Source: a virus
Lineage: Duplodnaviria; Caudoviricetes
Virus record (IMG/VR): IMGVR_UViG_3300037067_021792
Strand: one strand, 5' to 3'
DNA: 64,000 bases
Part shown: positions 7,871-39,104 of the stretch, one piece after another
Position numbering within the stretch: the first letter of the stretch is position 1
How the letters are laid out: each line of letters starts with the position of its first letter
The notes under the pieces: model-generated
Seen by the model: the letters and a program-made list of their open reading frames with translations, nothing else
What the model was told of the DNA's origin: nothing
Databases searched by the model: none
Program-made: the position numbers and the translations under genes

Positions 7871-9179
7871 CACTCCGCAGGGACTAAAGTCCCACAGATT
7901 CTCTAATCACTGAACATTCTTGCCCCGCCATTTCTAGCAAAGTAGAGGATTGTTCTCCTAGAGCGTTTATTCCCGCAAGCCCTACGGTATATCTATTTAA
8001 AATATTTTTGCTAGCATTTAAGTCTCTGTCTTCTACGTCCCCACAACAAGGGCATTTATGTATTCTAACACTTAAATCTTTCCTAACCATCGAACCACAA
8101 GAGCTACATAATTGGCTGGTATTCTTGGGATTAACTAGCTCCACTTTCCCACCGGCACTCTCAGCCTTGTAGGTAGTGTATTGAACTAATTTATTCCAAG
8201 AACAGTCACTTATGCTTTTAGCTAACTTATGGTTTTTAACCATATTAGAAACTGTTAAATCTTCAAAAACTATGGTTTCAAAGCTCTTTGCTAGACAAGA
8301 AGACGCTTTGTGTAAATAATCATCTCTTTGAAATCGTATTTTTCTGTGTAGACGTGCTACTTTGATTCGTTGCTTGTTCCTTCTGTTGCTAGTCTTTGTG
8401 GGTTTTCTTGAAAAAGTTCTCTGTGTTCTTGCGAGTGAATGTTCTGTTTTCTTTAAGAACTTAGGATTCTCTATAGTTTCTCCAGTAGATAAAGCACATA
8501 AAGTTTTAATCCCTACATCTATTCCTACAACAGAACCAGGATTAGAATGTATGATAAATTCTTGCTCTATATCACAAGCAAAGATAACGTACCAATGATC
8601 TACATCTCGTACCACTTGGCACGTTTTTATATCTCCTAAAATTGGCCTACTATAAACCATCTTAACACAACCAATTTTAGAAAGTTCTACTCTTTTATTA
8701 TTTGATGTAATTCTAAAGCCCAACTGAGGATAAGTAAAAGAACGATATCTATTAAAACTCTTAAAGCGTGGAAATCCTGCTTTTTTTGTTCCCTGTTTGC
8801 ATCGATCGAAAAATCTTTTATAAGATTTATCGAGCCTTTTAAGAACGTTTTGTAGCACCTGAGAATAAACTTGAGACTGGTAATGATTCTTATTTTTAGC
8901 TAAGTTGTTCGCCTGCTGGTTATAAGTTAAAGTTTTTTGAGTGTTTTGATAAGCCTCTTTTCTTTGTTCAAGTGCATCGTTATATGTGTGCCTACAAGTA
9001 TTTAGAGTGTTTATAAGTAGTTGCTCTTGTTTTCGAGTGGGATAAAGCCTGTATTTAAAAGATTTCATTGGCATTTCTATTGAATTATACAAGGAAATTG
9101 AGTATAATTCCTCGTAAGAAATTTAAAAGTTCGCTTATATCTACAGGGGTTAAAACCCCGTAGTTTTACGCTCAGGAGT
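7867..9179 (-). mobile_element. IS200/IS605-family tnpB-only (IS1341-like) element
   Basis: Left-end hairpin CTACGGGG-TTTT-AACCCCTGTAG near 9141-9163; right-end hairpin GGGAC-TTTA-GTCCC ending GTGTCAA at 7867; TTAT immediately 5' of the left end; no tnpA. Confidence 0.8.
7884..9092 (-). CDS. tnpB: RNA-guided endonuclease TnpB
   Basis: FKYRLYPT HTH, GIDVG / FEDL / DRDLNASKNI RuvC triad, CSSC..CPCC zinc finger. Confidence 0.93.
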   Translation of the reverse strand: MYNSIEMPMKSFKYRLYPTRKQEQLLINTLNTCRHTYNDALEQRKEAYQNTQKTLTYNQQANNLAKNKNHYQSQVYSQVLQNVLKRLDKSYKRFFDRCKQGTKKAGFPRFKSFNRYRSFTYPQLGFRITSNNKRVELSKIGCVKMVYSRPILGDIKTCQVVRDVDHWYVIFACDIEQEFIIHSNPGSVVGIDVGIKTLCALSTGETIENPKFLKKTEHSLARTQRTFSRKPTKTSNRRNKQRIKVARLHRKIRFQRDDYLHKASSCLAKSFETIVFEDLTVSNMVKNHKLAKSISDCSWNKLVQYTTYKAESAGGKVELVNPKNTSQLCSSCGSMVRKDLSVRIHKCPCCGDVEDRDLNASKNILNRYTVGLAGINALGEQSSTLLEMAGQECSVIRESVGL

Positions 9180-9884
9180 ATAAGGCATTATTCTGTCTGT
9201 TCTTCCGTTTTTTACTTCATTTAGATCACAATACTCTTTTACTATGCATTTAGGCCACAATGTCTGACACAAATCAAAGTCTTTTGAACTTTTTTGTGAT
9301 AATCTATTACGCTTATTGTCGAGATGTTCATATAGCCAGGCAGAACTTCTTATAACCGTTCCATTTTTATAAAATAGTCTGAGAGCAATATCGGCTTCCC
9401 ATCCGGTATTAATGAATCTGCGGTCAAATCCTCCCAGATTTATAAATAAAGTTTTAGTAATCATCATTGTGATGGGCATTATCCCAAAACCCGGAGGTGT
9501 TATGGGCATGAGGGGATTTGTGTCCTTTTTCTTATAATTCCCCGTTATTATGGTATGCTGTTCGTCTGATTCGAGCATGCTTTGTAACATTTTTTGTAAG
9601 AAATCTTCCTGCGGAACAAGGTCATCCACCATATGAATTACGTATTTACCTATAGTTTGAGAAAATGCCATATGGGCAGCTCTGGCTGGATTTGCATCGG
9701 TTCGTATAAATTTAAAGTTTGGAGGCAGAGATATTTGTGGAACAACGTGCCCTGCATATACTATTTCAAAGTCAATTTGGCTGTTTGACAGGGTTTTATA
9801 TGTGTTTTCCCAGTATTTTGTATATATTGCCGCGCTAAAAATACTAATTAATGGAACCATAAACAAGTAATTCTCTGTATTCAC
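9150..9884 (-). CDS. GT2-like glycosyltransferase; last 9 codons come from the IS left end
   Basis: HMVDDL, LGGFDRRF, EADIALR. Confidence 0.65.
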   Translation of the reverse strand: MNTENYLFMVPLISIFSAAIYTKYWENTYKTLSNSQIDFEIVYAGHVVPQISLPPNFKFIRTDANPARAAHMAFSQTIGKYVIHMVDDLVPQEDFLQKMLQSMLESDEQHTIITGNYKKKDTNPLMPITPPGFGIMPITMMITKTLFINLGGFDRRFINTGWEADIALRLFYKNGTVIRSSAWLYEHLDNKRNRLSQKSSKDFDLCQTLWPKCIVKEYCDLNEVKNGRTDRIMPYTPERKTTGF

Positions 9885-9902
9885 TGAGTTGTCCTCTGTC
9901 GT

Positions 9903-9911
9903 CGGTATAAT
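9903..9911 (+). promoter_or_regulatory. CGGTATAAT -10-type promoter
   Basis: Same 9-mer recurs in intergenic gaps at 19595 and 62203; AGGAG SD downstream. Confidence 0.5.
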
Positions 9912-9931
9912 ACTATAGTTTTAGGTTAGGA

Positions 9932-10435
9932 GTGCATATCATGAATATAAAAAAAACTGATTCTGGCCTTTTTGTTATTGAACCGCATGTTTTTGAGGAC
10001 TATCGGGGAGAATATATAGAAATATATAATGAAAATGAGTATCAAATTAATGGCATAGATGTGCATTTTGTACAAGATGACATATCTATTTCTGCTAAAC
10101 ATGTTTTAAAGGGTATACATGGAGATTCAAATACATGGAAGCTTGTGTCTTGTTTGAGTGGTAGAATATATTTAGTTGTAGTTAATTGCGATGTCGATTC
10201 TAAGGACTTTGGAAAATGGGATTCATTCATTATATCTGATAAAAACTACAGACAAGTACTTTTACCGCCGAAATTCGGAAACTCCATATTAACTTTAAGT
10301 GATATATCTGTTTTCCACTATAAACAATCTACGTATTATAATAAGAGCGGACAATTTACATATAAGTGGAATGATCCGAGGTTTGGCATAACTTGGCCAA
10401 TAGATAATCCTATTCTCTCAGAAAGGGACAGATGA
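9932..10435 (+). CDS. rmlC: dTDP-4-dehydrorhamnose 3,5-epimerase family
   Basis: FEDYRG, FVQDDIS, VLKGIHG, KWNDP..ITWP. Confidence 0.85.
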   Translation: MHIMNIKKTDSGLFVIEPHVFEDYRGEYIEIYNENEYQINGIDVHFVQDDISISAKHVLKGIHGDSNTWKLVSCLSGRIYLVVVNCDVDSKDFGKWDSFIISDKNYRQVLLPPKFGNSILTLSDISVFHYKQSTYYNKSGQFTYKWNDPRFGITWPIDNPILSERDR

Positions 10436-11289
10436 CATCTAATACCGGCACGGATCTCAGTTTGGTCTGTCCCACGGCAAGGTCTCGGGAAACTTGTATT
10501 GAAATGTGTAGCTCCATAAAAACAAATCTCAATATTGAAATAATTTTTGTTGGCCCGGTAAACATTTTTTCTGATGGATATAATAACATTCTTGTGGATA
10601 GTGCGGATATTCGAATTCCTTTCAAATTTATAACTACTTCAGTCAGTCCTGTTCAATGTTGGCAGATTGGGATGAATGCTGCGAAAGGTGAAACAGTAAG
10701 TATAACAGGTGATGATGCGACATTCTCTCCATATGCATGGGATAAATCTTATGCAATGTATAAAGATTCCAGTGACTATAAAACAATTGTTTCCCTGAGT
10801 TGGTTTCAACCTCATAAATACATTACGCTTGAAGAATATTCTCGCATCACTTTCATGGATACTCAATTAGAAAATATAGATTCTTCAATGTGGCAAAATT
10901 TTGATAGTAAAATGAAAGAATTTGGGATCCAACTGCCGACGGGATGTTCTGTTATGAGTAGAAAATTCTTTTGTGAGTTAGGAGGATATGATCGCAGATT
11001 TATTAAAAGAAACGCAGAGCGTGATTTATTTCTCAGAGCCATAAAAAATGGTGCAACTGTGAAATATTGTTTAGATGCTCGGGTTTTTGAATGGCGTTCG
11101 CATGTAATAATAAATCCAACTTATTCATCAAAAATTGCATCTCGGGAAGACTCTATGTTGTGCAAAAAGAAATGGAAGATGGAAGATGGGCGTCTTATCC
11201 AAATTATGGTCGATGAGCTGTTTGAATCCGATGAAACATTCCTTATTGTCTCGCAGGGAGCGAAAAATGAAAGTGCTATTGATAAATAA
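10432..11289 (+). CDS. GT2-like glycosyltransferase (paralog of 14335..15138)
   Basis: LSLVCPTAR, TGDD, LGGYDRRF. Confidence 0.65.
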   Translation: MTSNTGTDLSLVCPTARSRETCIEMCSSIKTNLNIEIIFVGPVNIFSDGYNNILVDSADIRIPFKFITTSVSPVQCWQIGMNAAKGETVSITGDDATFSPYAWDKSYAMYKDSSDYKTIVSLSWFQPHKYITLEEYSRITFMDTQLENIDSSMWQNFDSKMKEFGIQLPTGCSVMSRKFFCELGGYDRRFIKRNAERDLFLRAIKNGATVKYCLDARVFEWRSHVIINPTYSSKIASREDSMLCKKKWKMEDGRLIQIMVDELFESDETFLIVSQGAKNESAIDK

Positions 11290-31198: not shown

Positions 31199-31314
31199 GA
31201 ATACGGCCAATTTCCAAAGCATGGGCAGGTGAATTTCTTGAAGGATACACAAAAGGCTGGTTTGAAGCCGATGATGAGATTGGTTGAAATTCATGATATC
31301 TGAGGAGAATATGA

Positions 31315-31704
31315 GTGATAACAGTGACGAATCGAGCTGCTGATCAAATTAAGAAGATTATCAAAGATTCAGGATCGCAATGTTCCGTAGACTCCACTGG
31401 CGCTCCAGGTTCGCGGTATTATCTGAGTGTTGGCGTTAAGGCAGGTGGATGCTCCGGGTTTGAATATACAATAGATGTACAAGAACAATGTCCTGTCGAT
31501 TATATTAAAAATAATAGCGAAGGCATAGACATAATCTGTGATCCCAAAAGCTTTATTTATCTAGATGGGTGCCAAATCGATTTTGTTGAGAGTATGATGA
31601 AATCCGGTTTTGTATTTCTAAACCCTAATGCACAATACAATTGTGGATGTGGCAAAAGTTTCAGTGCTGCTTCCAGCTGTGGTGGGTGCCCAGAAAATTC
31701 TTAA
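31315..31704 (+). CDS. iscA: A-type Fe-S carrier (IscA/HesB family)
   Basis: GGCSGFEY, DPKS, NPNA..CGCGKSF. Confidence 0.92.
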   Translation: MITVTNRAADQIKKIIKDSGSQCSVDSTGAPGSRYYLSVGVKAGGCSGFEYTIDVQEQCPVDYIKNNSEGIDIICDPKSFIYLDGCQIDFVESMMKSGFVFLNPNAQYNCGCGKSFSAASSCGGCPENS

Positions 31705-31721
31705 AAATTTAGAGGGTTTTC

Positions 31722-31749
31722 TTGAAATCTGTAGAATATAGAGTATAAT
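31722..31749 (+). promoter_or_regulatory. Sigma70-type promoter of the ncRNA cluster
   Basis: TTGAAA-16nt-TATAAT; predicted start coincides with the first RNA stem. Confidence 0.7.
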
Positions 31750-31752
31750 AGT

Positions 31753-31849
31753 ATGCTCACAACCTAAAAGGTTGGATTACAAACTTGCGGAAGAGTGAAT
31801 TGAGTCCCGAATGTGGGCTCAAAAAGTCCAGTCGAACTTTTGTGAGTGT
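31753..31849 (+). ncRNA. Structured RNA A (CCUAA/UACAAAC module; Y-RNA-like)
   Basis: 10-bp closing stem, CCTAAAA/GAACTT internal loop, 9-bp second helix, internal hairpin. Confidence 0.7.
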
Positions 31850-31865
31850 TCTTTTAAAATTGAAT

Positions 31866-32000
31866 AAAAGTTGCGCCCTAATGGCTTGGCTTACAAACAA
31901 TTAGCTCATTGGTAGAGCGACACTCCTAATAAAGTGATGGTAGCAGGTTCAAATCCTGTATTGTTAAACAAAAACGGCCTCGTAAACTTGCGCAACTTTT
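31866..32000 (+). ncRNA. Structured RNA B: same module carrying a tRNA-like cloverleaf (31895-31966)
   Basis: Perfect 11-bp stem AAAAGTTGCGC/GCGCAACTTTT; D arm GCTC-ATTGGTA-GAGC; T arm GCAGG-TTCAAAT-CCTGT; no CCA. Confidence 0.8.
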
Positions 32001-32007
32001 TGTATTT

Positions 32008-32059
32008 GTTCGGGATCCGAAAGGATTTAATTTTGGGAGTCATCCCTTCCCGAGCACCA
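32008..32059 (+). ncRNA. Mini tRNA-like element ending in ACCA
   Basis: 7-bp stem GTTCGGG/CCCGAGC plus A-CCA; two small internal hairpins. Confidence 0.45.
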
Positions 32060-32060
32060 T

Positions 32061-32144
32061 GCGAGGGACGGTGAGATCTCGTCGGACGATGATGTCAAAG
32101 TTGTCTCTGTCGATGACACAAAGGTTCAACTCCTTTGCTTCGCG
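32061..32144 (+). ncRNA. Degenerate class II tRNA-like element
   Basis: Acceptor GCGAGG/CTTCGC, T arm AAAGG-TTCAACT-CCTTT, variable arm TGTC-GAT-GACA; 9-nt anticodon loop; no CCA. Confidence 0.55.
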
Positions 32145-32196
32145 TTAGTACTCGATGTGAGTACGGTTTTGAGTAGTAAGTAAAAGGGGAACAGTT

Positions 32197-32268
32197 ATGT
32201 TTTTTACATGGTTTTTTGAATTTATTTCGCTTGTTTCTCGGCTAGTTACCATCGGAGTCGAAGGGTAA
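32197..32268 (+). CDS. 23-aa Phe-rich peptide MFFTWFFEFISLVSRLVTIGVEG
   Basis: AAGGGGA SD 6 nt before ATG; stop lies inside hairpin 32230-32281. Confidence 0.35.
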   Translation: MFFTWFFEFISLVSRLVTIGVEG

Positions 32269-32291
32269 TTCCGAGAACAAGAATCTAGTAT

Positions 32292-32371
32292 AAAGCCGCA
32301 ACCTAAAGGGACGGACCTACAAACATTTTTCTTGACCAATGTTGAACTGTCCTCCGGACTATTGCGGCTTT
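32292..32371 (+). ncRNA. Structured RNA C (same module), followed by a U-run
   Basis: Perfect 10-bp stem AAAGCCGCAA/TTGCGGCTTT, CCTAAAG/GGACTA loop, TACAAAC. Confidence 0.7.
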
Positions 32372-32395
32372 TTTGTTTGAATCTGAAAGGAAATT

Positions 32396-32980
32396 GTGAT
32401 GGGGTCAATCAAGAAAAATCATATCATCGATCCAAATCAATCGGATAACACTCACGAAAAGCTACTTTCCAATTTTAAGTGGGATGAAATTGGGGAAGGC
32501 TCTGGCACAGAAATGGCAGAAAGTGGCGTAGCGAGATCTATTTCTGAGTGCGCTCAAAATCTATTCTCATCCTTATTGAGGGATATTAATATTTCGAATT
32601 ATGAGGGAGCAATGTTTGTGGTTCCTGTGAATGTTGATTCATCTGCGATACTGGCATCGTGTTTTAATGACGATTATAGTATTGAATCTCGGCTCGATGT
32701 TTTAAGTCTGATCTACGCCGCATTCCGCGGTATCGCCAACACGCCCGACACTTGCGCTGACATAAATCGCAAAATCGAGGAGATATTGCCAACCGAAGAT
32801 TCTAGATTTTATCGCGTGGCAGATTTTATCGATATTGCCGATAACCCAGAATGTCCTGTTGGGGTTAGCCTTGATTCTGGCGAGACATTCTCGACAGAAG
32901 ACAACTCGAAATCCGTTATAATCGAAGTTCATATCATTGAATGCTCGAAAGAGAATAATTCGCCAAATAGTGGTGATTGA
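32396..32980 (+). CDS. Hypothetical protein
   Basis: Intact 194-aa ORF with AAGGA SD. Confidence 0.6.
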   Translation: MMGSIKKNHIIDPNQSDNTHEKLLSNFKWDEIGEGSGTEMAESGVARSISECAQNLFSSLLRDINISNYEGAMFVVPVNVDSSAILASCFNDDYSIESRLDVLSLIYAAFRGIANTPDTCADINRKIEEILPTEDSRFYRVADFIDIADNPECPVGVSLDSGETFSTEDNSKSVIIEVHIIECSKENNSPNSGD

Positions 32981-33003
32981 TGATAATAGTGGTGATTGAT
33001 GAT
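32966..33003 (+). repeat. 19-bp perfect tandem duplication AATAGTGGTGATTGATGAT
   Basis: Copies at 32966-32984 and 32985-33003. Confidence 0.95.
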
Positions 33004-33895
33004 AAGGGCGCTTGAGGGCGAGTGGTCAGATGAGCACTATCATACTATCATTCATCCTATATTATCTGCTCATTTAAAGCCTGCGCGTCAACAGGCGCTC
33101 CCAATCACCAGGCTACATGATGATCAGTTTTGGGAAAGCTGTCGCAATTCTGATATTTATGTTCTTGATTATAGGTCATGGTATTTAGACCAGTCAGAAT
33201 TTTACAAATATGCTTTGCAAATTTCAAATATACAGAATAGCGCCATTGTGCTGTTTGAAAATCCATTTGGGGTTGAAAGACCGAATATCGACGATTCATC
33301 TTTCAGGGGGTTATTAAATTCCAGAACTAATCTGCTAGCAAATTTGATTAGATCACATTCCAATTCTAAAATTATCTCCCCTGCCATTAGAATATTTGAT
33401 TATCAAACCGAAAGAAAATGTTTAGATTATTTTATAAACAACAGAAAATTATTTGATATTTATGCAGTGCATTGTTGCGACGAGATGGATGATAGAAATA
33501 TCGGGTCATTGTGCAGTTTATTAAATCAAGCAATGAAACTTTATCCAAAACCAGTATGGGTGACTAAATGGGCGATTCCGTGCTTCGACACTCCCGTTGA
33601 AAATTCTATGTGGATTCCAACTAGCACCGAAGTATCTGCGCGACAAATGAAAAACATTCATAGAGATATATGCAATATATCAATAACAGGTTTAGAATGG
33701 TTTTTTGTTGGCACTGGAACTGATAAATATTCTCCAACTGAAAATGTGCCGCTGAATATGCATTCGAATTTGCCATACATTCCAGACAAGCAGTCTTTGC
33801 AGTGGAACAAAGAACACTTTTTGGGATCAGCGGACTACTTGGGGAATGTAAAACAGAACATATTAAATCAAATCATTGAGTTGAATAGTGTTTGA
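32996..33895 (+). CDS. Glycoside-hydrolase-like TIM barrel, catalytic residues altered
   Basis: KIISPA, FDIYAVH, KPVWVTKWA. Confidence 0.5.
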   Translation: MMIRALEGEWSDEHYHTIIHPILSAHLKPARQQALPITRLHDDQFWESCRNSDIYVLDYRSWYLDQSEFYKYALQISNIQNSAIVLFENPFGVERPNIDDSSFRGLLNSRTNLLANLIRSHSNSKIISPAIRIFDYQTERKCLDYFINNRKLFDIYAVHCCDEMDDRNIGSLCSLLNQAMKLYPKPVWVTKWAIPCFDTPVENSMWIPTSTEVSARQMKNIHRDICNISITGLEWFFVGTGTDKYSPTENVPLNMHSNLPYIPDKQSLQWNKEHFLGSADYLGNVKQNILNQIIELNSV

Positions 33896-34862
33896 TAATT
33901 CAGATATACTTTTGAGATGGTCAGTGGGGTCCCAAGACACCACTAAGCTGTCTGAGTATGAACATAATAAATTTATAGATTTTATCTGGCTTACTAAATT
34001 ATCGATTATATCTTTTCAAAAATGGTTTCCAAAAGCCCAATGTGTTCTACTATATAACGGGAATGAATTTAAAAAATTTTGCGACATGTTCTACCAGTCC
34101 GATCCTAAAATGCAGGTTAATATAGAAATTATAAATCAATATCAAAAGGTTATATCTGGTGAATGGAAAAATCCGTATCATTTCTATCCAAAAGGTGTTT
34201 GGTGGAAATGGATCCCCTTTAGGATTGATATTAACAAACATGAAATTGCAATAGATACTGATATTATCTGTATATCAAAACCTATAACGTGGTATGACTG
34301 GGTGACGGGTGACTCGAATATACTTGTTGCTCCCGAGCGGTATGAAACTGTATCAATCTCTACGACAGGAGATTATTGTAACCATCCTTTATTAAAAGGG
34401 AAGACGCCATATAATTGTGGCGTTGTTGGGCAGCGCAAGGGACAAGATTATACGGATAGATTTTTTGAAATAACCCAAGATGTCAAGTTCGGGCATAGCC
34501 ACAATAGCCTGTTTATAACTGAACAAGGTGCAATAAATTTGTGGGTAAGATCTCTGGAATCTGAAGGTGTTACGCATTGTTGTCTTGATTTTACCAAGAA
34601 TGCGTGGATGCGTGATTTTGTATACTTTTTGAGTAAGGGCATTTCAGTCGAGACAATACATGCTGTAGCGTGGCATAAGCAGATAGCAAAAGCACTCAGG
34701 GAAGAGATCGAGAAAAAAGTAATAGACGATACCTATACTAATGAACAGTTTCTAGCAGATGTTGTCAAAAGATCATCAAATTTAGATCAATTATCTAAGG
34801 CATTGATTCTTAAGCAGGTCGAAGGATTATTAAACTCGGAAACTTTGGTCCAATATTCGTAG
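33888..34862 (+). CDS. GT-A fold glycosyltransferase-like
   Basis: IDTDII DxD, YNCGVV, EQGAIN. Confidence 0.6.
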   Translation: MFDNSDILLRWSVGSQDTTKLSEYEHNKFIDFIWLTKLSIISFQKWFPKAQCVLLYNGNEFKKFCDMFYQSDPKMQVNIEIINQYQKVISGEWKNPYHFYPKGVWWKWIPFRIDINKHEIAIDTDIICISKPITWYDWVTGDSNILVAPERYETVSISTTGDYCNHPLLKGKTPYNCGVVGQRKGQDYTDRFFEITQDVKFGHSHNSLFITEQGAINLWVRSLESEGVTHCCLDFTKNAWMRDFVYFLSKGISVETIHAVAWHKQIAKALREEIEKKVIDDTYTNEQFLADVVKRSSNLDQLSKALILKQVEGLLNSETLVQYS

Positions 34863-34904
34863 GTTGTGCGGACATCTGGAATAACGGTTTTTGAAGAAAC
34901 GCTC

Positions 34905-34933
34905 TTGTTTTATTGCTGGGTATACCGTATAAT
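34905..34933 (+). promoter_or_regulatory. Sigma70-type promoter of the VWA gene
   Basis: TTGTTT-17nt-TATAAT, GAGG SD. Confidence 0.55.
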
Positions 34934-34956
34934 GTCAGAGTCAATTGAGGTAAAAC

Positions 34957-36750
34957 ATGGAATCACAATTTTCTGTTCAAGAAGAAATGTTCAAAGCTCT
35001 ACTTCGCACTCCGCATAGGCAGGTAGACGAAACCCTGCATTTGCACAAGTCTCAATTTGAGCGAGATCCAAACTTTTATGGTAAACTAGCCGCCTATTGT
35101 GTCATTGGTGAAAATTGTGCGGTTCGAGATATTAATGAGGTGTTCATTGCTACTTTATTGGTGTCTTCATATGAACAGCATCAAGAAGCCGGATATGTTA
35201 TGTTTCAGTCTCTTCCACCATATGAGGCGGACCGGGTGGCCAATTACGTCACTGGTTATGACGAGACCATAGTGCGGCATTCGTATGAGTCTGATATGCC
35301 CAAGCAGAACTCATTCGGCGTGACTTATGAAATTGCCAAATACGGAAGCAATCATCCCGATCCAGAGAAGAGAGGGAAGGATATGCCAGTTCGTGTTATA
35401 AAGCTTGGTAATAAAAGTAAATTGCGAGCTTTGCTTATAAAACAAAATAAAATCGACTACAATACTAAGGAAATCACCGCGACCACATATTTGGTTCACC
35501 ACAAGTGTTATAACCAGCGCAATTTTAAGGGCATATTGAAAAGAGCTGTTAAATCATATCTGAAATATCGAGAAAACAATCCAGCTATGATGGAAGGGGC
35601 TTTGATCCGTTCGGCACAGTCAATTAAGAAGTTTTATGTTCGCACCCATGCTTTACCTCTTGGTAATGCAAATAGTTGGATTAATCGATATTTGTTTGCC
35701 GATGAAACAATTCCTGGCACCAGATTACATGCTCTAAAAACGTTACAAAACGAGAAAGATCCAATTAGGCAGGCAGAAATTGTTACAGAAAATAATCTGC
35801 CGTTTACGGTTGTATCGTCTCTTATGTCTGATATTACTCCATCCGTTACGGCTGCATCGATTATGGTGATGTCTTATCAAGAGATTATGCAATCTATGGA
35901 CCTGTTAAAACGCCGAGGGGCTTTTGACAATCCAGATTTGAAGAAATTAATACATGACAAATTAGAAAAAGCCAAAAAAGCCAAAAAGGGCCGGATGGAT
36001 GCAATGAAGGGCAAAAAAGCCGCTAGCACTAAAGGTCTAGACAAAGACACTCAGTCTTTGTTGAAAGATATAACCGATCAGCAGCTAAAGCATCATAGCA
36101 ATATATCTGTTCCAACTGCTTTATTAATAGATAAATCAGGATCGATGACCGAGTCTATTAATCTGGGGAAGCAACTAAGTGCGGCTATAGCACAGGCATG
36201 TGCTCCTGGCAATGAACCTATCGTTTACCTATTCGATGCAACTCCAGTAGAAATTGAATGGAACAAGAAAGATGGAGATATAACATTACTCTCTAGTTGG
36301 GAGAAAAAGCTGGCAATGTTCCGGGCTAATGGCGGAACTGATCCTGCTGCGGTTCTAATGGCAATGGAACTTAAGAACCAGGTTGCAGACCAAATATTAT
36401 TAGTTACCGATGAGGGAGAAAATAATGAAGGGAAATTTGCCAAACAGCTTAAATCTTATTCAAAGAAAATGGGTGTAACACCTAATATCGTTATAGTACG
36501 AATTGGTAGTTCTGGATATGGAATACACGATATTATAGAAAAATCTCTCAAGAAAGCCGGATTTAATGTTACGGTTTTAGTTGCAACTGGAATTGACAGC
36601 GTTTCTTTACCTAACGTTATTCAGTTGCTTTCTTGTAAAAGTACATTTGAGTTAGTCCAGGAGATTTTGTCGTTGACTTTACCCACTCGCAGTGAGTGGG
36701 ACGCCAATAATCTTCTAAACGTTGTTAGTGAAGGAGTTCAAAGTGTCTAG
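34957..36750 (+). CDS. TROVE/Ro60-like helical domain plus VWA domain protein
   Basis: C-terminal MIDAS: LIDKSGSM, GGTD, VTDEGEN; long helical N-terminus with LLRTPHR / DPNFY / VRD motifs. VWA call is secure, TROVE call is by resemblance. Confidence 0.7.
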   Translation: MESQFSVQEEMFKALLRTPHRQVDETLHLHKSQFERDPNFYGKLAAYCVIGENCAVRDINEVFIATLLVSSYEQHQEAGYVMFQSLPPYEADRVANYVTGYDETIVRHSYESDMPKQNSFGVTYEIAKYGSNHPDPEKRGKDMPVRVIKLGNKSKLRALLIKQNKIDYNTKEITATTYLVHHKCYNQRNFKGILKRAVKSYLKYRENNPAMMEGALIRSAQSIKKFYVRTHALPLGNANSWINRYLFADETIPGTRLHALKTLQNEKDPIRQAEIVTENNLPFTVVSSLMSDITPSVTAASIMVMSYQEIMQSMDLLKRRGAFDNPDLKKLIHDKLEKAKKAKKGRMDAMKGKKAASTKGLDKDTQSLLKDITDQQLKHHSNISVPTALLIDKSGSMTESINLGKQLSAAIAQACAPGNEPIVYLFDATPVEIEWNKKDGDITLLSSWEKKLAMFRANGGTDPAAVLMAMELKNQVADQILLVTDEGENNEGKFAKQLKSYSKKMGVTPNIVIVRIGSSGYGIHDIIEKSLKKAGFNVTVLVATGIDSVSLPNVIQLLSCKSTFELVQEILSLTLPTRSEWDANNLLNVVSEGVQSV

Positions 36751-37099
36751 AAACATTATTCCTGAAATCCCTTACGAGAAGGCTATTCGTAATTTGATGG
36801 GGAATCAATGGAGATCATTACCCGACAGGGACAGGGATGGAGCATGGGGTATTGCTATCGCAAAATCAATATCGAATGGTGTAAAGCCGGATCTATACGA
36901 AATTGCGTTACATTTGGGGGTTGATGTGGATATGATACGCACTGCGTTCGGCCGAATGTCCATGAACGGGGCACTACTGAGAGACCGAATACACAAAGAT
37001 CATGATCTCGCAAATGACGATTCGTTGGCATTGGGTTATTATGCTGGGTATGCATCGGGCTATTGTGGACCGTTGAGAGATGCCAAATCAACCACCTAA
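36722..37099 (+). CDS. Hypothetical protein (possible HTH); stop codon falls in the IS remnant end
   Basis: LYEIALHLGVDVDMIRTAF. Confidence 0.6.
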   Translation: MLVKEFKVSRNIIPEIPYEKAIRNLMGNQWRSLPDRDRDGAWGIAIAKSISNGVKPDLYEIALHLGVDVDMIRTAFGRMSMNGALLRDRIHKDHDLANDDSLALGYYAGYASGYCGPLRDAKSTT

Positions 37100-37340
37100 C
37101 CGCTAAAGTTAGGTTTGCTCCTCAATAGGAACGATTGGCTAGTTGATAGTAGCCTGCCTATTAAGTTCAGTCCTCCATCGAGTGGAGAAGAAAACGAAAT
37201 AGGGTGTTTAGAACCATGAGCTTCTTGAGTTTGAACGTATTTTCTAGCTATGTTAATCGCGGCATTCCAGTCCGCGTCAAACACAGCACCATCAGAAGCA
37301 TAAAACCTACATCCCTTGCGCTCTCCTCCACTAAGACCGG
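37088..37340 (-). mobile_element. Truncated tnpB 3' end with IS605-type right end
   Basis: RKGCRFYASDGAVFDADWNAAINIA RuvC-III; hairpin CCTAAC-TTTAGCG-GTTAGG then TGGTTGA. Confidence 0.75.
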
Positions 37341-37440
37341 AGCTGATATACATGCTGATGCTGATTATGCTTTGAGACACGCTGCTGCTAATGGCCATCT
37401 AGATGTGGTTGAATACTTAAATACCTGCAATGCAAAATGA
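37334..37440 (+). pseudogene. Ankyrin-repeat gene remnant
   Basis: GADIHADADYALRHAAANGHLDVVEYL with no plausible start. Confidence 0.75.
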
Positions 37441-38281
37441 TTTATTTAAAAACATTGTTAAAATGGAGCGGGAATTTCGCACAAAAGAATTTCTCGCTCC
37501 TTATACCGAGGAATCTAAGATCGCCATTATTAAAATGGATGGTCTTAATTATAGATTTCACATCGGCGGGTTTTCTGGCTCGGGTATTGGAAAATTCATT
37601 CCGATATCTCCTACTTATGCTGAATATACAGGCGAAGCCGATCAATCTTTAGTTAGATCGTATTTTAACAGTCTTCTATCTCTTAGAGTTATTTTGTGCT
37701 ATGAAACGAATTTCGGGTGGGTTGCTTATCCCGCCAGCATTAATGTGGCACGAAATAAGTTTTCTCTAGATGGGGAACTTGTTGTTAAAAATGCTTTTGA
37801 CAATCGCTTTGACGTAGTATTGGCCAGATTCGACGGTTTGCATTTTTGGTCCGATGGCATCTGCCCAACAAATTCATTTAAATCTAAGTGTATGCGAGAT
37901 TGTTTTGTGCCCAAATACACTCCAGACCAAATGAGAGAAGCACTGAAGAAAATACCAAATATAACTCCGGAAGATAATTGTGCTTTTGAGTTGGCAATAT
38001 CATCAGCCGAAAATATTCTTAATGAATATCTTACTACAGGTGGTGGTTCGTTGACCTCGTATATAGTGCAAGGTCCTAATATAGAAATTAAGTGGAAATC
38101 GGCTGCTGGTAATAGCTATACTTCATTGGTGGATAAAGAATCGCTAGATGTTATTTCTACTGGTGTGTGTTTGACAAATGATACATTACATCTAAAAGAC
38201 CTACCATTTTTGGCTGAGTCTATCGAGAATTATCGAGTGCCAATACGTAATATAGATTTTAATGGTATTGAGGATTTTTGA
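37430..38281 (+). CDS. Conserved hypothetical protein, likely partner of the VWA gene
   Basis: EFLAPY, WVAYP, ARFDG..W, LDVISTGVCL motifs. Confidence 0.65.
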   Translation: MQNDLFKNIVKMEREFRTKEFLAPYTEESKIAIIKMDGLNYRFHIGGFSGSGIGKFIPISPTYAEYTGEADQSLVRSYFNSLLSLRVILCYETNFGWVAYPASINVARNKFSLDGELVVKNAFDNRFDVVLARFDGLHFWSDGICPTNSFKSKCMRDCFVPKYTPDQMREALKKIPNITPEDNCAFELAISSAENILNEYLTTGGGSLTSYIVQGPNIEIKWKSAAGNSYTSLVDKESLDVISTGVCLTNDTLHLKDLPFLAESIENYRVPIRNIDFNGIEDF

Positions 38282-38284
38282 ATA

Positions 38285-38788
38285 ATGATAGCGCCAAATA
38301 GACCTACGTGGGATGAAACATTTATGTCAATGGCTTTAGTGTATTGTCTCAGGTCTCCCGACCCTGCAACGAAACATGGGGCTATTATAGTTGATTCTCA
38401 ACATCATCCAATGGGGTGGGGGTATAATGGGTATCCTAAAGGCGGAACAATTGATTTATATCCAACTACCCGACCTGCAAAATATAGGCACATAGCCCAT
38501 TCAGAACTTAACGCCCTGCTGAATAGGACAATTAATACAAAAGGTGGCACTGTATATGTAACAGGGCATCCTTGTTGTGGGTGCATGGTAGCAATGATTC
38601 AGGCAAGTATACGAGAAATAATCTATGGCAAAATTGGATCTCATTGTGTTAATAAAGAAGATTGGGATGCGGTTAATTTGATGTCTGTAGATTGTGGTGT
38701 AAAACTTACTGCGTATTCCGGAAGATATCCCGTTGATATCTATAATGAAGTGAAGGATTATCTCAAATTAAAAGAATGGACCGAATAA
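38285..38788 (+). CDS. dCMP deaminase
   Basis: RSPDP, GYNG, HSELNAL, PCCGC. Confidence 0.92.
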   Translation: MIAPNRPTWDETFMSMALVYCLRSPDPATKHGAIIVDSQHHPMGWGYNGYPKGGTIDLYPTTRPAKYRHIAHSELNALLNRTINTKGGTVYVTGHPCCGCMVAMIQASIREIIYGKIGSHCVNKEDWDAVNLMSVDCGVKLTAYSGRYPVDIYNEVKDYLKLKEWTE

Positions 38789-38798
38789 GGAGAATATT

Positions 38799-39104
38799 GT
38801 GACAGAAATTGAGAAAATATGTGACATGGGCAAATGCTTATCTATTCTTCCCCTCCAAGATTTAAGTAATAGAGATCTAACATGCTTATATGCTGCACAA
38901 CTAATTAAAAATAATGGAGAGAATATTGATGCTCGTGATATTCTTGATGAACTAGACAGACGAGCGGATGATTGGCAACAGAAAATTTATGAAGCGGAAA
39001 AAAAGCGAGATGAAGCCGTATATGAAAAAGAACATTTAGAAACTATTATTTCTCAGATTGAGGATGCTATGAAATCTGTCGATAAAATTTTGGAGAACGA
39101 ATAA
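38799..39104 (+). CDS. Hypothetical coiled-coil protein
   Basis: AGGAG SD, operonic spacing. Confidence 0.6.
   Translation: MTEIEKICDMGKCLSILPLQDLSNRDLTCLYAAQLIKNNGENIDARDILDELDRRADDWQQKIYEAEKKRDEAVYEKEHLETIISQIEDAMKSVDKILENE

Follow-up and report, generated by a model that had tools for sequence, protein, structure and literature searches.

From bacteria to humans, Ro60/Y RNA particles have been conserved, and the Ro60 protein is one of the major autoantigens. Particles of this type are already known from both bacteria and phages (PMC4201824, PMC7824862, PMC12135203). Bacterial Y RNAs mimic tRNA (PMC4201824); in YrlA the tRNA-like domain is circularly permuted, with the T arm placed before the D arm and a closed acceptor stem, and it is joined to the rest of the RNA via the anticodon stem (10.1101/312249). 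The 5' strand contacted by canonical Ro proteins reads GGUCCGA in animals and GNCGAA or CGAA in bacteria and phage (PMC4201824, PMC12135203), and a phage Ro60 binds phage-encoded Y-like RNAs as well as the PNPase of the host (PMC12135203). In this paper, a locus of related appearance is described from a stretch of 64,000 nucleotides (the window) of the Caudoviricetes record IMGVR_UViG_3300037067_021792. Three small RNAs, a Ro-like protein of 597 residues (34957..36750) and a partner protein of 283 residues (37430..38281) are encoded here in this order. All genes of the stretch under study (31722-38281) are on the + strand, as are all features of this region described below. It is fairly probable that the three RNAs, the Ro-like protein and the partner are parts of a Ro-type ribonucleoprotein (RNP), and that the locus represents, in reduced form, a sister family of the Ro60 (Rsr)/Y RNA systems that is widespread and has not been annotated.

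The Ro-like protein provides the first line of evidence. A note made earlier from the DNA letters (referred to below as the earlier note) had ascribed to this product a long helical N-terminus and an intact C-terminal vWA domain with its MIDAS (metal ion-dependent adhesion site), and both the AlphaFold2 model and an alignment of 40 family members agree with that description. The model, based on a 40-sequence alignment, has a mean predicted local distance difference test (pLDDT) value of 87.5 and is helical over its N-terminal two thirds; the MIDAS residues D392, S394 and S396 (IDKSGSM), T461 and D485 (TDEGEN) are invariant in the 40 members. The further suggestion of a divergent Ro60-type protein was supported by comparisons of predicted structure and of sequence. 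When the model was searched against the PDB with Foldseek, every one of the top 12 matches was a Ro60, Rsr or phage TROVE protein, with alignments of about 585 columns and E-values of 1e-11 to 5e-08. In the VIA comparison, Z-scores of 19.4 for Deinococcus Rsr (2nvo; root-mean-square deviation 3.8, 444 of 496 residues aligned), 19.2 for human Ro60 (9nen) and 17-19 for the Ro60 of Thermus phage phiLo were obtained, whereas chains with a vWA domain only were aligned over about 173 residues at Z <= 16. The N-terminal region is modelled as a TROVE ring, in keeping with the toroid expected there. A profile of the family, run against all PDB sequences, retrieved Ro60/TROVE chains alone at E <= 0.001 (5e-07 to 1e-03), the only further row being ribosomal protein L18 at E 0.45. 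Among the PHROGs, the protein matches phrog_850, 'RNA-binding protein' (8e-07). By its predicted fold and its sequence profile, the 597-residue product is a divergent Ro60/Rsr-like protein with a TROVE ring and a vWA domain.

Homologs of this protein are widely distributed. A search with the 597-residue sequence gave 359 matches at E <= 0.001, and two groups can be recognized among the best 120 of these 359. The first is a clade of proteins of about 600 residues, 43-90% identical to the query and mostly found on large contigs; the second comprises proteins of about 500 residues, 32-39% identical, from Planctomycetota, Desulfobacterota, Acidobacteriota and metagenome contigs. Specific to the 600-residue phage clade is a beta-rich insertion, modelled with confidence, which interrupts the ring for about 90 residues (approximately residues 101-193); it is missing from shorter family members and is skipped by tblastn alignments to other clades. 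The idea that this insertion is the ubiquitin-like protein (Ubl) missing from the window (see below) was rejected, as a Ubl hidden Markov model (HMM) gives no match there. Compared with the closest described proteins, the Rsr of Salmonella and Mycobacterium (PMC4201824; 10.1101/312249) likewise consists of a TROVE ring and a vWA domain with MIDAS. The Ro60 of phiLo (PDB 9KOP, 9L5Y; PMC12135203), a phage Ro60 homolog too, is the best sequence-profile match to the window family (E 5e-07) in addition to its fold similarity; unlike it, the window protein carries the insertion at residues 101-193.

The second line of evidence is the RNA array, which was scored with a covariance model of the RNA family, R1 (filters off, 2-kb search). 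Over both strands of the 64 kb, the motif CCTAA-N(5-20)-TACAAAC occurs at only 3 sites, all on the + strand (31763, 31877 and 32302). Three R1 matches cover these motif copies, which upholds the claim of the earlier note that an RNA array lies about 2.6 kb before the Ro-like gene; the array ends at 32369, 2.6 kb ahead of the start codon, and its units lie 2.6-3.2 kb upstream. A common fold can be seen in all units: a terminal stem of 7-11 bp, differing in sequence from unit to unit, an asymmetric loop with CCUAAxx on the 5' side against (A)AACUU on the 3' side, a second stem, an unpaired UACAAAC, and an interior that varies and is called the payload here. The two stems together with the two loop motifs are referred to as the handle. 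Each of the three units is followed by a U-rich stretch.

Unit 1 (31755..31847; R1 23.2 bits, E 2.5e-05; fold z-score -2.6) has the CCUAAAA/GAACUU internal loop, the second stem and UACAAAC, and its payload is a hairpin without a tRNA module. Unit 2 (31869..31997; R1 120 bits, E 8e-32) carries its handle around a tRNA-like cloverleaf (31895-31967), which is in normal order, without the circular permutation of the YrlA type, and is joined via the acceptor stem; a U run follows. This cloverleaf scores 48 bits with the Rfam tRNA model, and ARAGORN reports it as 'tRNA-???' with an abnormal anticodon loop of 8 nt. A functional tRNA has a 7-nt anticodon loop, a 7-bp acceptor stem and a CCA or CCA-addable end; in unit 2 none of these is found, the acceptor stem being 6 bp long and followed by A.A and, with no CCA, the 3' side running on AAACAAAAA into the handle. 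In unit 3 (32294..32369; R1 26 bits, E 4e-06), an acceptor-like stem capped by a 9-nt loop replaces the tRNA module, and a U run follows again; its fold z-score is -4.7, and 0 of 200 shuffles fold as well. Searched against Rfam, the window gave only tRNA (RF00005), both at the gathering threshold and at E <= 10, and neither YrlA (RF02553) nor Y_RNA (RF00019). A hand-written descriptor of stems and motifs was dropped for the covariance model, as it recovered 1 of the 3 units, about the yield from shuffled sequence.

Ahead of the array lies a sigma-70-like promoter sequence, TTGAAA and TATAAT with a 16-nt spacer (31722..31749), recognized by consensus match alone (11/12). It is the best such site in 31200-38900 and ends 6 nt before unit 1, and its first hexamer is the point at which the earlier note had begun the element. 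By sequence, the site is a candidate promoter, positioned for a transcription start at or just ahead of unit 1.

The same RNA is found in relatives of the locus. Sixteen viral loci were retrieved with the Ro-like protein family alone, and nearly all of them have a tRNA-like gene 130-800 nt upstream of the Ro-like gene. Its flanks are arranged as a terminal stem, CCNNAC, a second stem, UACA, the cloverleaf, a tail resembling ACCA, RACUU and, once more, the terminal stem. The 'anticodons' of these cloverleaves include those of Leu and Ser without a long variable arm, and the modules of the relatives are therefore mimics rather than decoders. When 13 RNAs from 13 sites were aligned with MAFFT and read against a structure of seven helices, 87% of the cells were paired, as against about 39% when partners are slid; both sides are changed in 32 of the 35 pairs, and values as high as those observed came from 0 of 500 shuffles. 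Of 14 non-redundant viral loci, 13 have full-length R1 copies (60-123 bits) no more than about 2.5 kb upstream of the Ro-like gene; in the clade of the window phage itself, the copies lie 3-5 kb upstream. Full-length copies also occur in bacterial loci retrieved via the partner alone (L039, L025, L019, L026, L017 and others), which belong to Desulfobacterales, Myxococcota, Selenomonadaceae, Vulcanimicrobiota, Planctomycetota and others. Many loci have weaker R1 units in tandem arrays, and units without a tRNA module still match R1 via the handle. Conversely, R1 gave no match at E <= 1 in 8 of the 11 bacterial loci that have the partner and no Ro-like gene within 6 kb; the exceptions are two Obscuribacterales loci, L048 (E < 1e-3) and L044 with two weak matches (E 0.04 and 0.12), and L050, which was not scored. 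The co-occurrence of the CCUAA/UACAAAC handle with the Ro-like family thus extends over phage, bacterial and own-clade loci, in agreement with the association expected earlier.

Rfam searches of 11 related loci gave only tRNA and one group I intron, with no YrlA or Y_RNA. In the planctomycetotal locus L020 (3742-4087), two Y-like units (3742 and 3943) with the same handle have the T arm before the D arm, that is, the permutation of the YrlA type, so that both tRNA topologies exist within one RNA family. As in the Rsr-YrlA/YrlB systems, several small RNAs adjoin the protein gene, each is closed by a 5'/3' terminal stem, and the RNA is modular, with a putative protein-binding stem and a tRNA-like effector domain. 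Unlike those systems, the window gives no match to Pfam TROVE or Rfam YrlA, its handle reads CCUAA ... UACAAAC ... AACUU instead of GNCGAA, and its cloverleaf is non-permuted and joined via the acceptor stem, whereas that of YrlA is joined via the anticodon stem. The phiLo RNAs (Yrl1 and Yrl2) are also Y-like and encoded by the phage upstream of the protein; however, they have a CGAA bulge and no tRNA cloverleaf. Two further observations concern the tRNA genes near these loci. Within the large tRNA array of a related phage contig, a group I intron (RF00028, 67 bits) is found at L005:920-1107. In all six Abditibacteriota loci (L030, L034, L038, L040, L043 and L047), the Ubl and Ro-like genes are preceded by a pair of class II tRNAs (Tyr-GUA with Ser-UGA or Ser-AGA), and weaker Y-like units lie downstream of the ThiF gene; the complete Abditibacteriota genome AP024152.1 has two copies of the set.

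The third line of evidence is the partner at 37430..38281, which the earlier note had singled out as a conserved neighbour. With a partner HMM, a copy was detected 0-3.3 kb downstream of the Ro-like gene, and in the same orientation, in 16 of 16 viral loci, and the partner is present in every locus of the window clade with enough DNA. In an exhaustive profile search, the family comprises 1217 clusters at 50% identity. The partner was also used to fetch 34 genome loci, which belong to Planctomycetota, Cyanobacteria, Obscuribacterales, Abditibacteriota, Myxococcota and further groups; 20 of the 34 have a Ro-like gene nearby, upstream in 19 and reversed in L042. The association of both families in Planctomycetes, which the earlier note had named, is confirmed by these loci. 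For cyanobacteria, only the partner half of the association named there stands: the partner is present, but most of the filamentous cyanobacterial loci (Microseira, Planktothrix, Prochloron and others) lack a Ro-like gene within 6 kb and have ThiF and a small Ubl adjoining instead. In L021, L031, L032 and L033 a ThiF/E1 gene follows directly after the partner, L031 also has a small Ubl, and L046 ends within the partner gene; neither a Ro-like gene nor a Y-like RNA is found within 6 kb in these five loci. Partner and E1 can accordingly occur as a pair that lacks the RNP half. As a separate observation, L021, L032, L033 and L046 have upstream ORFs in common, and the upstream genes of L021 include a GNAT acetyltransferase and an AAA ATPase.

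The partner belongs to no annotated family. It gave no match in Pfam, PHROG, NCBIfam or PADLOC, a Pfam scan of 21 partner sequences at E <= 10 returned scattered single matches only, a partner profile run against PDB sequences retrieved nothing meaningful, and a look-up in the ESM Atlas gave no usable match. For the Ro-like protein, no match was found in NCBIfam, and PADLOC has no model for either protein, so the system is not a catalogued defence system. The predicted structure of the partner (pLDDT 84) consists of an N-terminal helix, beta domains with an OB-fold-like middle, a helical linker and a C-terminal unit of a helix, four strands and a helix, in which an invariant cysteine, C247, stands in the sequence xAGICL. 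The co-folding of the 597-residue protein with this partner, which the earlier note had proposed, was carried out and scored 0.60, against 0.00 for the best control. It is graded as 'weak support' on a mark that 58 of 80 solved complexes and 2 of 110 mismatched pairs reach, 7 of those 80 and both passing mismatches scoring 0.60 or less. Agreement between the runs extends to at least 57% of contacts, and the pLDDT of the partner is at least 70.

A wider set of genes surrounds this core in nearly all relatives, which was missed by the earlier note. When the neighbouring ORFs were clustered, a ThiF-family E1-like protein of about 215 residues was found in 45 of 50 loci and a Prok-JAB peptidase in at least 25. 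In NCBIfam and PADLOC, the E1-like protein has affinities with ThiF, MoeB, UbaA and the E1 half of Cap2 (PADLOC E1-E2), and the JAB protein with the desampylase/Cap3 type. In 35 loci, a small Ubl of 66-80 residues, ending in ...RPEAVFG (at times with 1-5 further residues), is encoded upstream of the Ro-like gene; L007 and P0107 have the Ubl as an N-terminal fusion to the Ro-like protein. The clade of the window phage itself became visible in a metagenome scan with the clade alignment, the scan with the single protein having given none of these relatives; among its 8 loci with enough DNA, three have a Ubl upstream, at a distance of about 7 kb. In the closest phage locus, L001, the interval between the partner and the dCMP deaminase gene (9119-11229) holds a 229-residue helix-turn-helix protein, JAB, ThiF and an 83-residue ORF, and these approximately 2.1 kb are missing from the window. 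No homolog of JAB, ThiF/E1 or Ubl was found in the 64-kb window by tblastn and a six-frame HMM search. Judged from these sequences, the window appears to hold a reduced form of the set, from which genes have been lost at this locus. A reduced form would mean that the core of RNA, Ro-like protein and partner can stand alone, unless the locus is decaying.

Set beside the minimal ubiquitin-like systems, the relatives resemble archaeal SAMP/UbaA/HvJAMM1, Thermus TtuB/TtuC and CBASS Cap2/Cap3 in having a short ThiF/MoeB-type E1, a JAB protein and a small Gly-terminal protein; unlike these systems, the window lacks all three genes. The SAMP and TtuB systems also serve tRNA thiolation. To our knowledge, no E2-less or minimal Ubl system includes a Ro-like protein or dedicated tRNA-like RNAs. 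The neighbours also distinguish the locus from the Rsr-YrlA/YrlB systems, as an OB/Cys protein, together with the Ubl/JAB/E1 set in relatives, takes the place of RtcB/RtcA, and no partner or Ubl module has been described for phiLo. Altogether, the branch differs from the known Ro60/Y RNA systems in five respects: the lack of a match to the TROVE and YrlA models, another handle, a cloverleaf joined via its acceptor stem, a fixed OB/Cys partner, and the Ubl/JAB/E1 genes of the relatives. No paper describing this system was found in the literature, although an earlier mention may exist in Burroughs and Aravind 2016 or in the 2020 Annual Review on bacterial Ro60.

Several observations weigh against the assignment to a Ro-type RNP. 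The 597-residue protein has no match to Pfam TROVE (PF05731) at E <= 0.01, and its match to vWA_Ro60 is below the cut-off (19.7 against 27.7 bits, E 8.6e-04), so that its predicted membership in the Ro60 family stands on the modelled structure and the remote profile match. The handle contains neither the GGUCCGA nor the GNCGAA/CGAA that are contacted by canonical Ro proteins (PMC4201824, PMC12135203), which makes the docking site of the protein a guess. In the window, the RNAs are not adjacent to the Ro-like gene, three unrelated genes lying in between. Residues 65-147 of the partner resemble only generic OB folds (PAN/Rpt/Mpa, S17, IF1 and RNase R) at Z 5.7-6.9, less than the level regarded as specific (Z 8). 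The partner of the window is also the shortest in its clade and lacks about 11 residues of the linker and 2-3 residues after the invariant cysteine that are kept by all relatives. Finally, Ro, partner, JAB and ThiF are all present in 8 of 8 loci of the window clade with enough DNA, whereas JAB and ThiF are absent here. With the Ubl, JAB and E1 genes missing and in-frame deletions in the partner, the locus could be decaying.

Predicted fold, remote sequence homology, RNA covariation and gene co-occurrence nevertheless all bear on the assignment to a Ro-type RNP, and from them we infer RNA binding, contact with the partner and a biological role. The promoter at 31722 would drive the three small RNAs, each closed by its own terminal stem. 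Their common handle, formed by the CCUAA/AACUU loop, the second stem and UACAAAC, would be the docking site for the ring of the Ro-like protein, and the variable interior would be displayed as a payload, a tRNA cloverleaf in unit 2 and hairpins in units 1 and 3. The 283-residue OB/Cys partner may join the particle, possibly via that face of the Ro-like protein which bears the vWA/MIDAS. For its function, the particle is modelled here on the Rsr-Yrn1-PNPase particle of Deinococcus (RYPER), in which the ring is linked to an effector by the Y RNA, which also controls entry into the ring; unlike in RYPER, the conserved neighbour here is a family without annotation. By analogy with this particle and with the Ro60 of phiLo (PMC4201824, PMC12135203), the RNAs may serve during infection as adaptors or gates by which factors that recognise tRNA, or substrates shaped like tRNA, are brought to the ring. 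The particle of relatives would be coupled to the Gly-terminal Ubl, ThiF/E1 and JAB, the window phage keeping the putative RNA-binding core only. The main options for the role are the handling of tRNA-shaped RNA, as quality control or as decoying, and, in the full systems, the activation of Ubl for protein tagging or for sulfur transfer to tRNA.

Among the other explanations, the decoy or repair platform proposed in the earlier note is the first to be considered. In this explanation the same particle would act against host defences that target tRNA, in that the tRNA-like unit and the other payloads would soak up anticodon nucleases or further effectors directed at tRNA, or in that the ring would hold cleaved tRNAs of phage or host until they are repaired. 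The close tRNA mimicry of unit 2 with its deviant anticodon loop would suit a decoy, as would the Leu and Ser modules of the relatives, which cannot be normal decoders without the long variable arm. The set often stands at the end of large phage tRNA arrays (L005, L008, L013, L035 and L037), and the Ro/TROVE proteins of jumbo phages have been discussed beside RNA-repair genes (PMC7824862). However, an RNA ligase, kinase-phosphatase or RtcB gene was seen neither among those neighbouring genes of the window that were inspected nor in the clusters of conserved neighbours, the companions that are conserved belong to ubiquitin-like and not to repair enzymes, and the presence of the set on bacterial chromosomes argues against a purely anti-defence role. 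A role of this kind appears rather unlikely, and the view of the partner as an effector, also put forward in the earlier note, is speculative.

An extension to the whole family can also be drawn, in which the system performs RNA-baited tagging with Ubl. The docked tRNA-shaped RNAs would recruit or sense targets, the Cys partner would be E2-like or an acceptor, ThiF would activate the Ubl and JAB would trim it; the window phage would keep the half made of RNA, Ro-like protein and partner, which either works without tagging or plugs into, or jams, a copy in the host. We regard this as unlikely.

A further explanation takes the locus as a decaying remnant, in which the RNAs, the Ro-like gene and the partner no longer function as a system after the deletion of Ubl, JAB and E1 and are still present only because the loss is recent. 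The deletions listed above are what speaks for it: JAB and ThiF stand directly after the partner in all 8 clade relatives with enough DNA, none of JAB, ThiF and Ubl is left in the window, and the partner has lost two segments that all relatives retain. Yet both ORFs are intact and keep all family-invariant residues, including the MIDAS and C247, the stems of all three RNAs are paired throughout and the handle is retained, and a candidate promoter close to the consensus precedes them. Moreover, the lineage persists, as a 90%-identical Ro-like protein and an 83%-identical partner are found on other contigs, and the Ubl, JAB and E1 genes could lie on the 270-kb contig beyond the 64-kb window. A remnant appears quite improbable.

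It is very improbable that the RNAs are tRNA-type precursors or terminator-flanked tRNA pseudogenes lying near a vWA protein by chance, with the helical and vWA protein serving as a scaffold of the Ubl system without RNA binding: although unit 2 scores as a tRNA (48 bits), many units of relatives have an ACCA-like 3' tail after the acceptor stem from which RNase P and RNase Z could free a tRNA-like product, and vWA domains are common protein-protein modules, the handle with its two stems and both loop motifs is conserved and covarying from Planctomycetota to jumbo phages and is kept where there is no tRNA module, the RNA tracks the Ro-like gene and not the partner/ThiF pair, and the full-length fold match is specific to Ro60 and reaches beyond the vWA domain.

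If the locus is indeed part of a Ro-type family, that family would be a large sister branch of Ro60 which has been overlooked by annotation. It would offer a natural series for the study of docking and delivery by Y-type RNAs, consisting of the full system, the cyanobacterial form with partner and E1 only, and the phage form without Ubl. Additionally, R1 can be used to annotate a new class of tRNA-like RNAs, which tRNA finders now report as odd tRNAs in phage genomes.

The remaining features of the locus can be followed along the gene order. An ORF of the HesB/IscA type (31315..31704) is followed by a non-coding region of 690 nt with the RNA array, by ORFs of 194, 299 and 324 residues, by the 597-residue ORF, an ORF of 125 residues and the 283-residue ORF, and then by the dCMP deaminase gene. 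Between units 2 and 3 of the array lies a non-coding spacer of about 290 nt (32000..32290) with a T-loop-like GGUUCAACUCC and local stable hairpins. Its fold z-scores are -0.8 and -2.5, it shows patchy similarity to the corresponding spacer of L001, and neither Rfam nor R1 gave a match in it; the spacer may hold a further, different RNA. The segment 32030-32146 was considered as an atypical tRNA and rejected, since a z-score of -0.8 indicates a fold energy that is not unusual and no model matches it.

The three genes inserted between the RNA array and the Ro-like gene (32396..34862; 194, 299 and 324 residues) have homologs only in L001. The 299-residue protein has a short, partial match to Glyco_hydro_cc, covering residues 116-194 only (28 bits against a cut-off of 21), and the 194- and 324-residue proteins have no match in Pfam or PHROG. 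In distant loci the RNA is directly upstream of the Ro-like gene, without inserted genes. The three genes are probably outside the core set. The small ORF of 125 residues between the Ro-like gene and the partner (36722..37099) is conserved in the closest relative only, with 57% identity over 80 residues to L001:7844-8077, and no family match above the cut-off was found for it in Pfam, PHROG or NCBIfam. At the junction 38281..38285, the stop codon of the partner abuts the dCMP deaminase gene, which starts at 38285; relatives hold JAB and the ThiF/E1-like gene at this point.

The window is part of a contig resembling those of giant phages, and the longest contig bearing the Ro-like protein in the homolog search is 270,634 bp. 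By blastn, 31300-39000 had no counterpart among 50,697 phage records. The window also has genes for Hsp70, ThyX, a type IA topoisomerase, TnpB, dCMP deaminase, and enzymes of the radical-SAM and sugar types. The HesB/IscA-type gene (31315-31704; PF01521), which belongs to Fe-S cluster assembly, stops 18 nt ahead of the RNA promoter and has no counterpart in the related loci. An Fe-S gene thus stands beside a locus whose relatives bear a ThiF/Ubl pair, a pair used elsewhere in sulfur transfer; this may or may not be a coincidence. The TnpB/IS605 OrfB-type gene, with an OrfB_IS605 domain and a Cas12f1-like TNB domain, is located at 7884-9092 on the - strand, within the block of sugar and radical-SAM genes.

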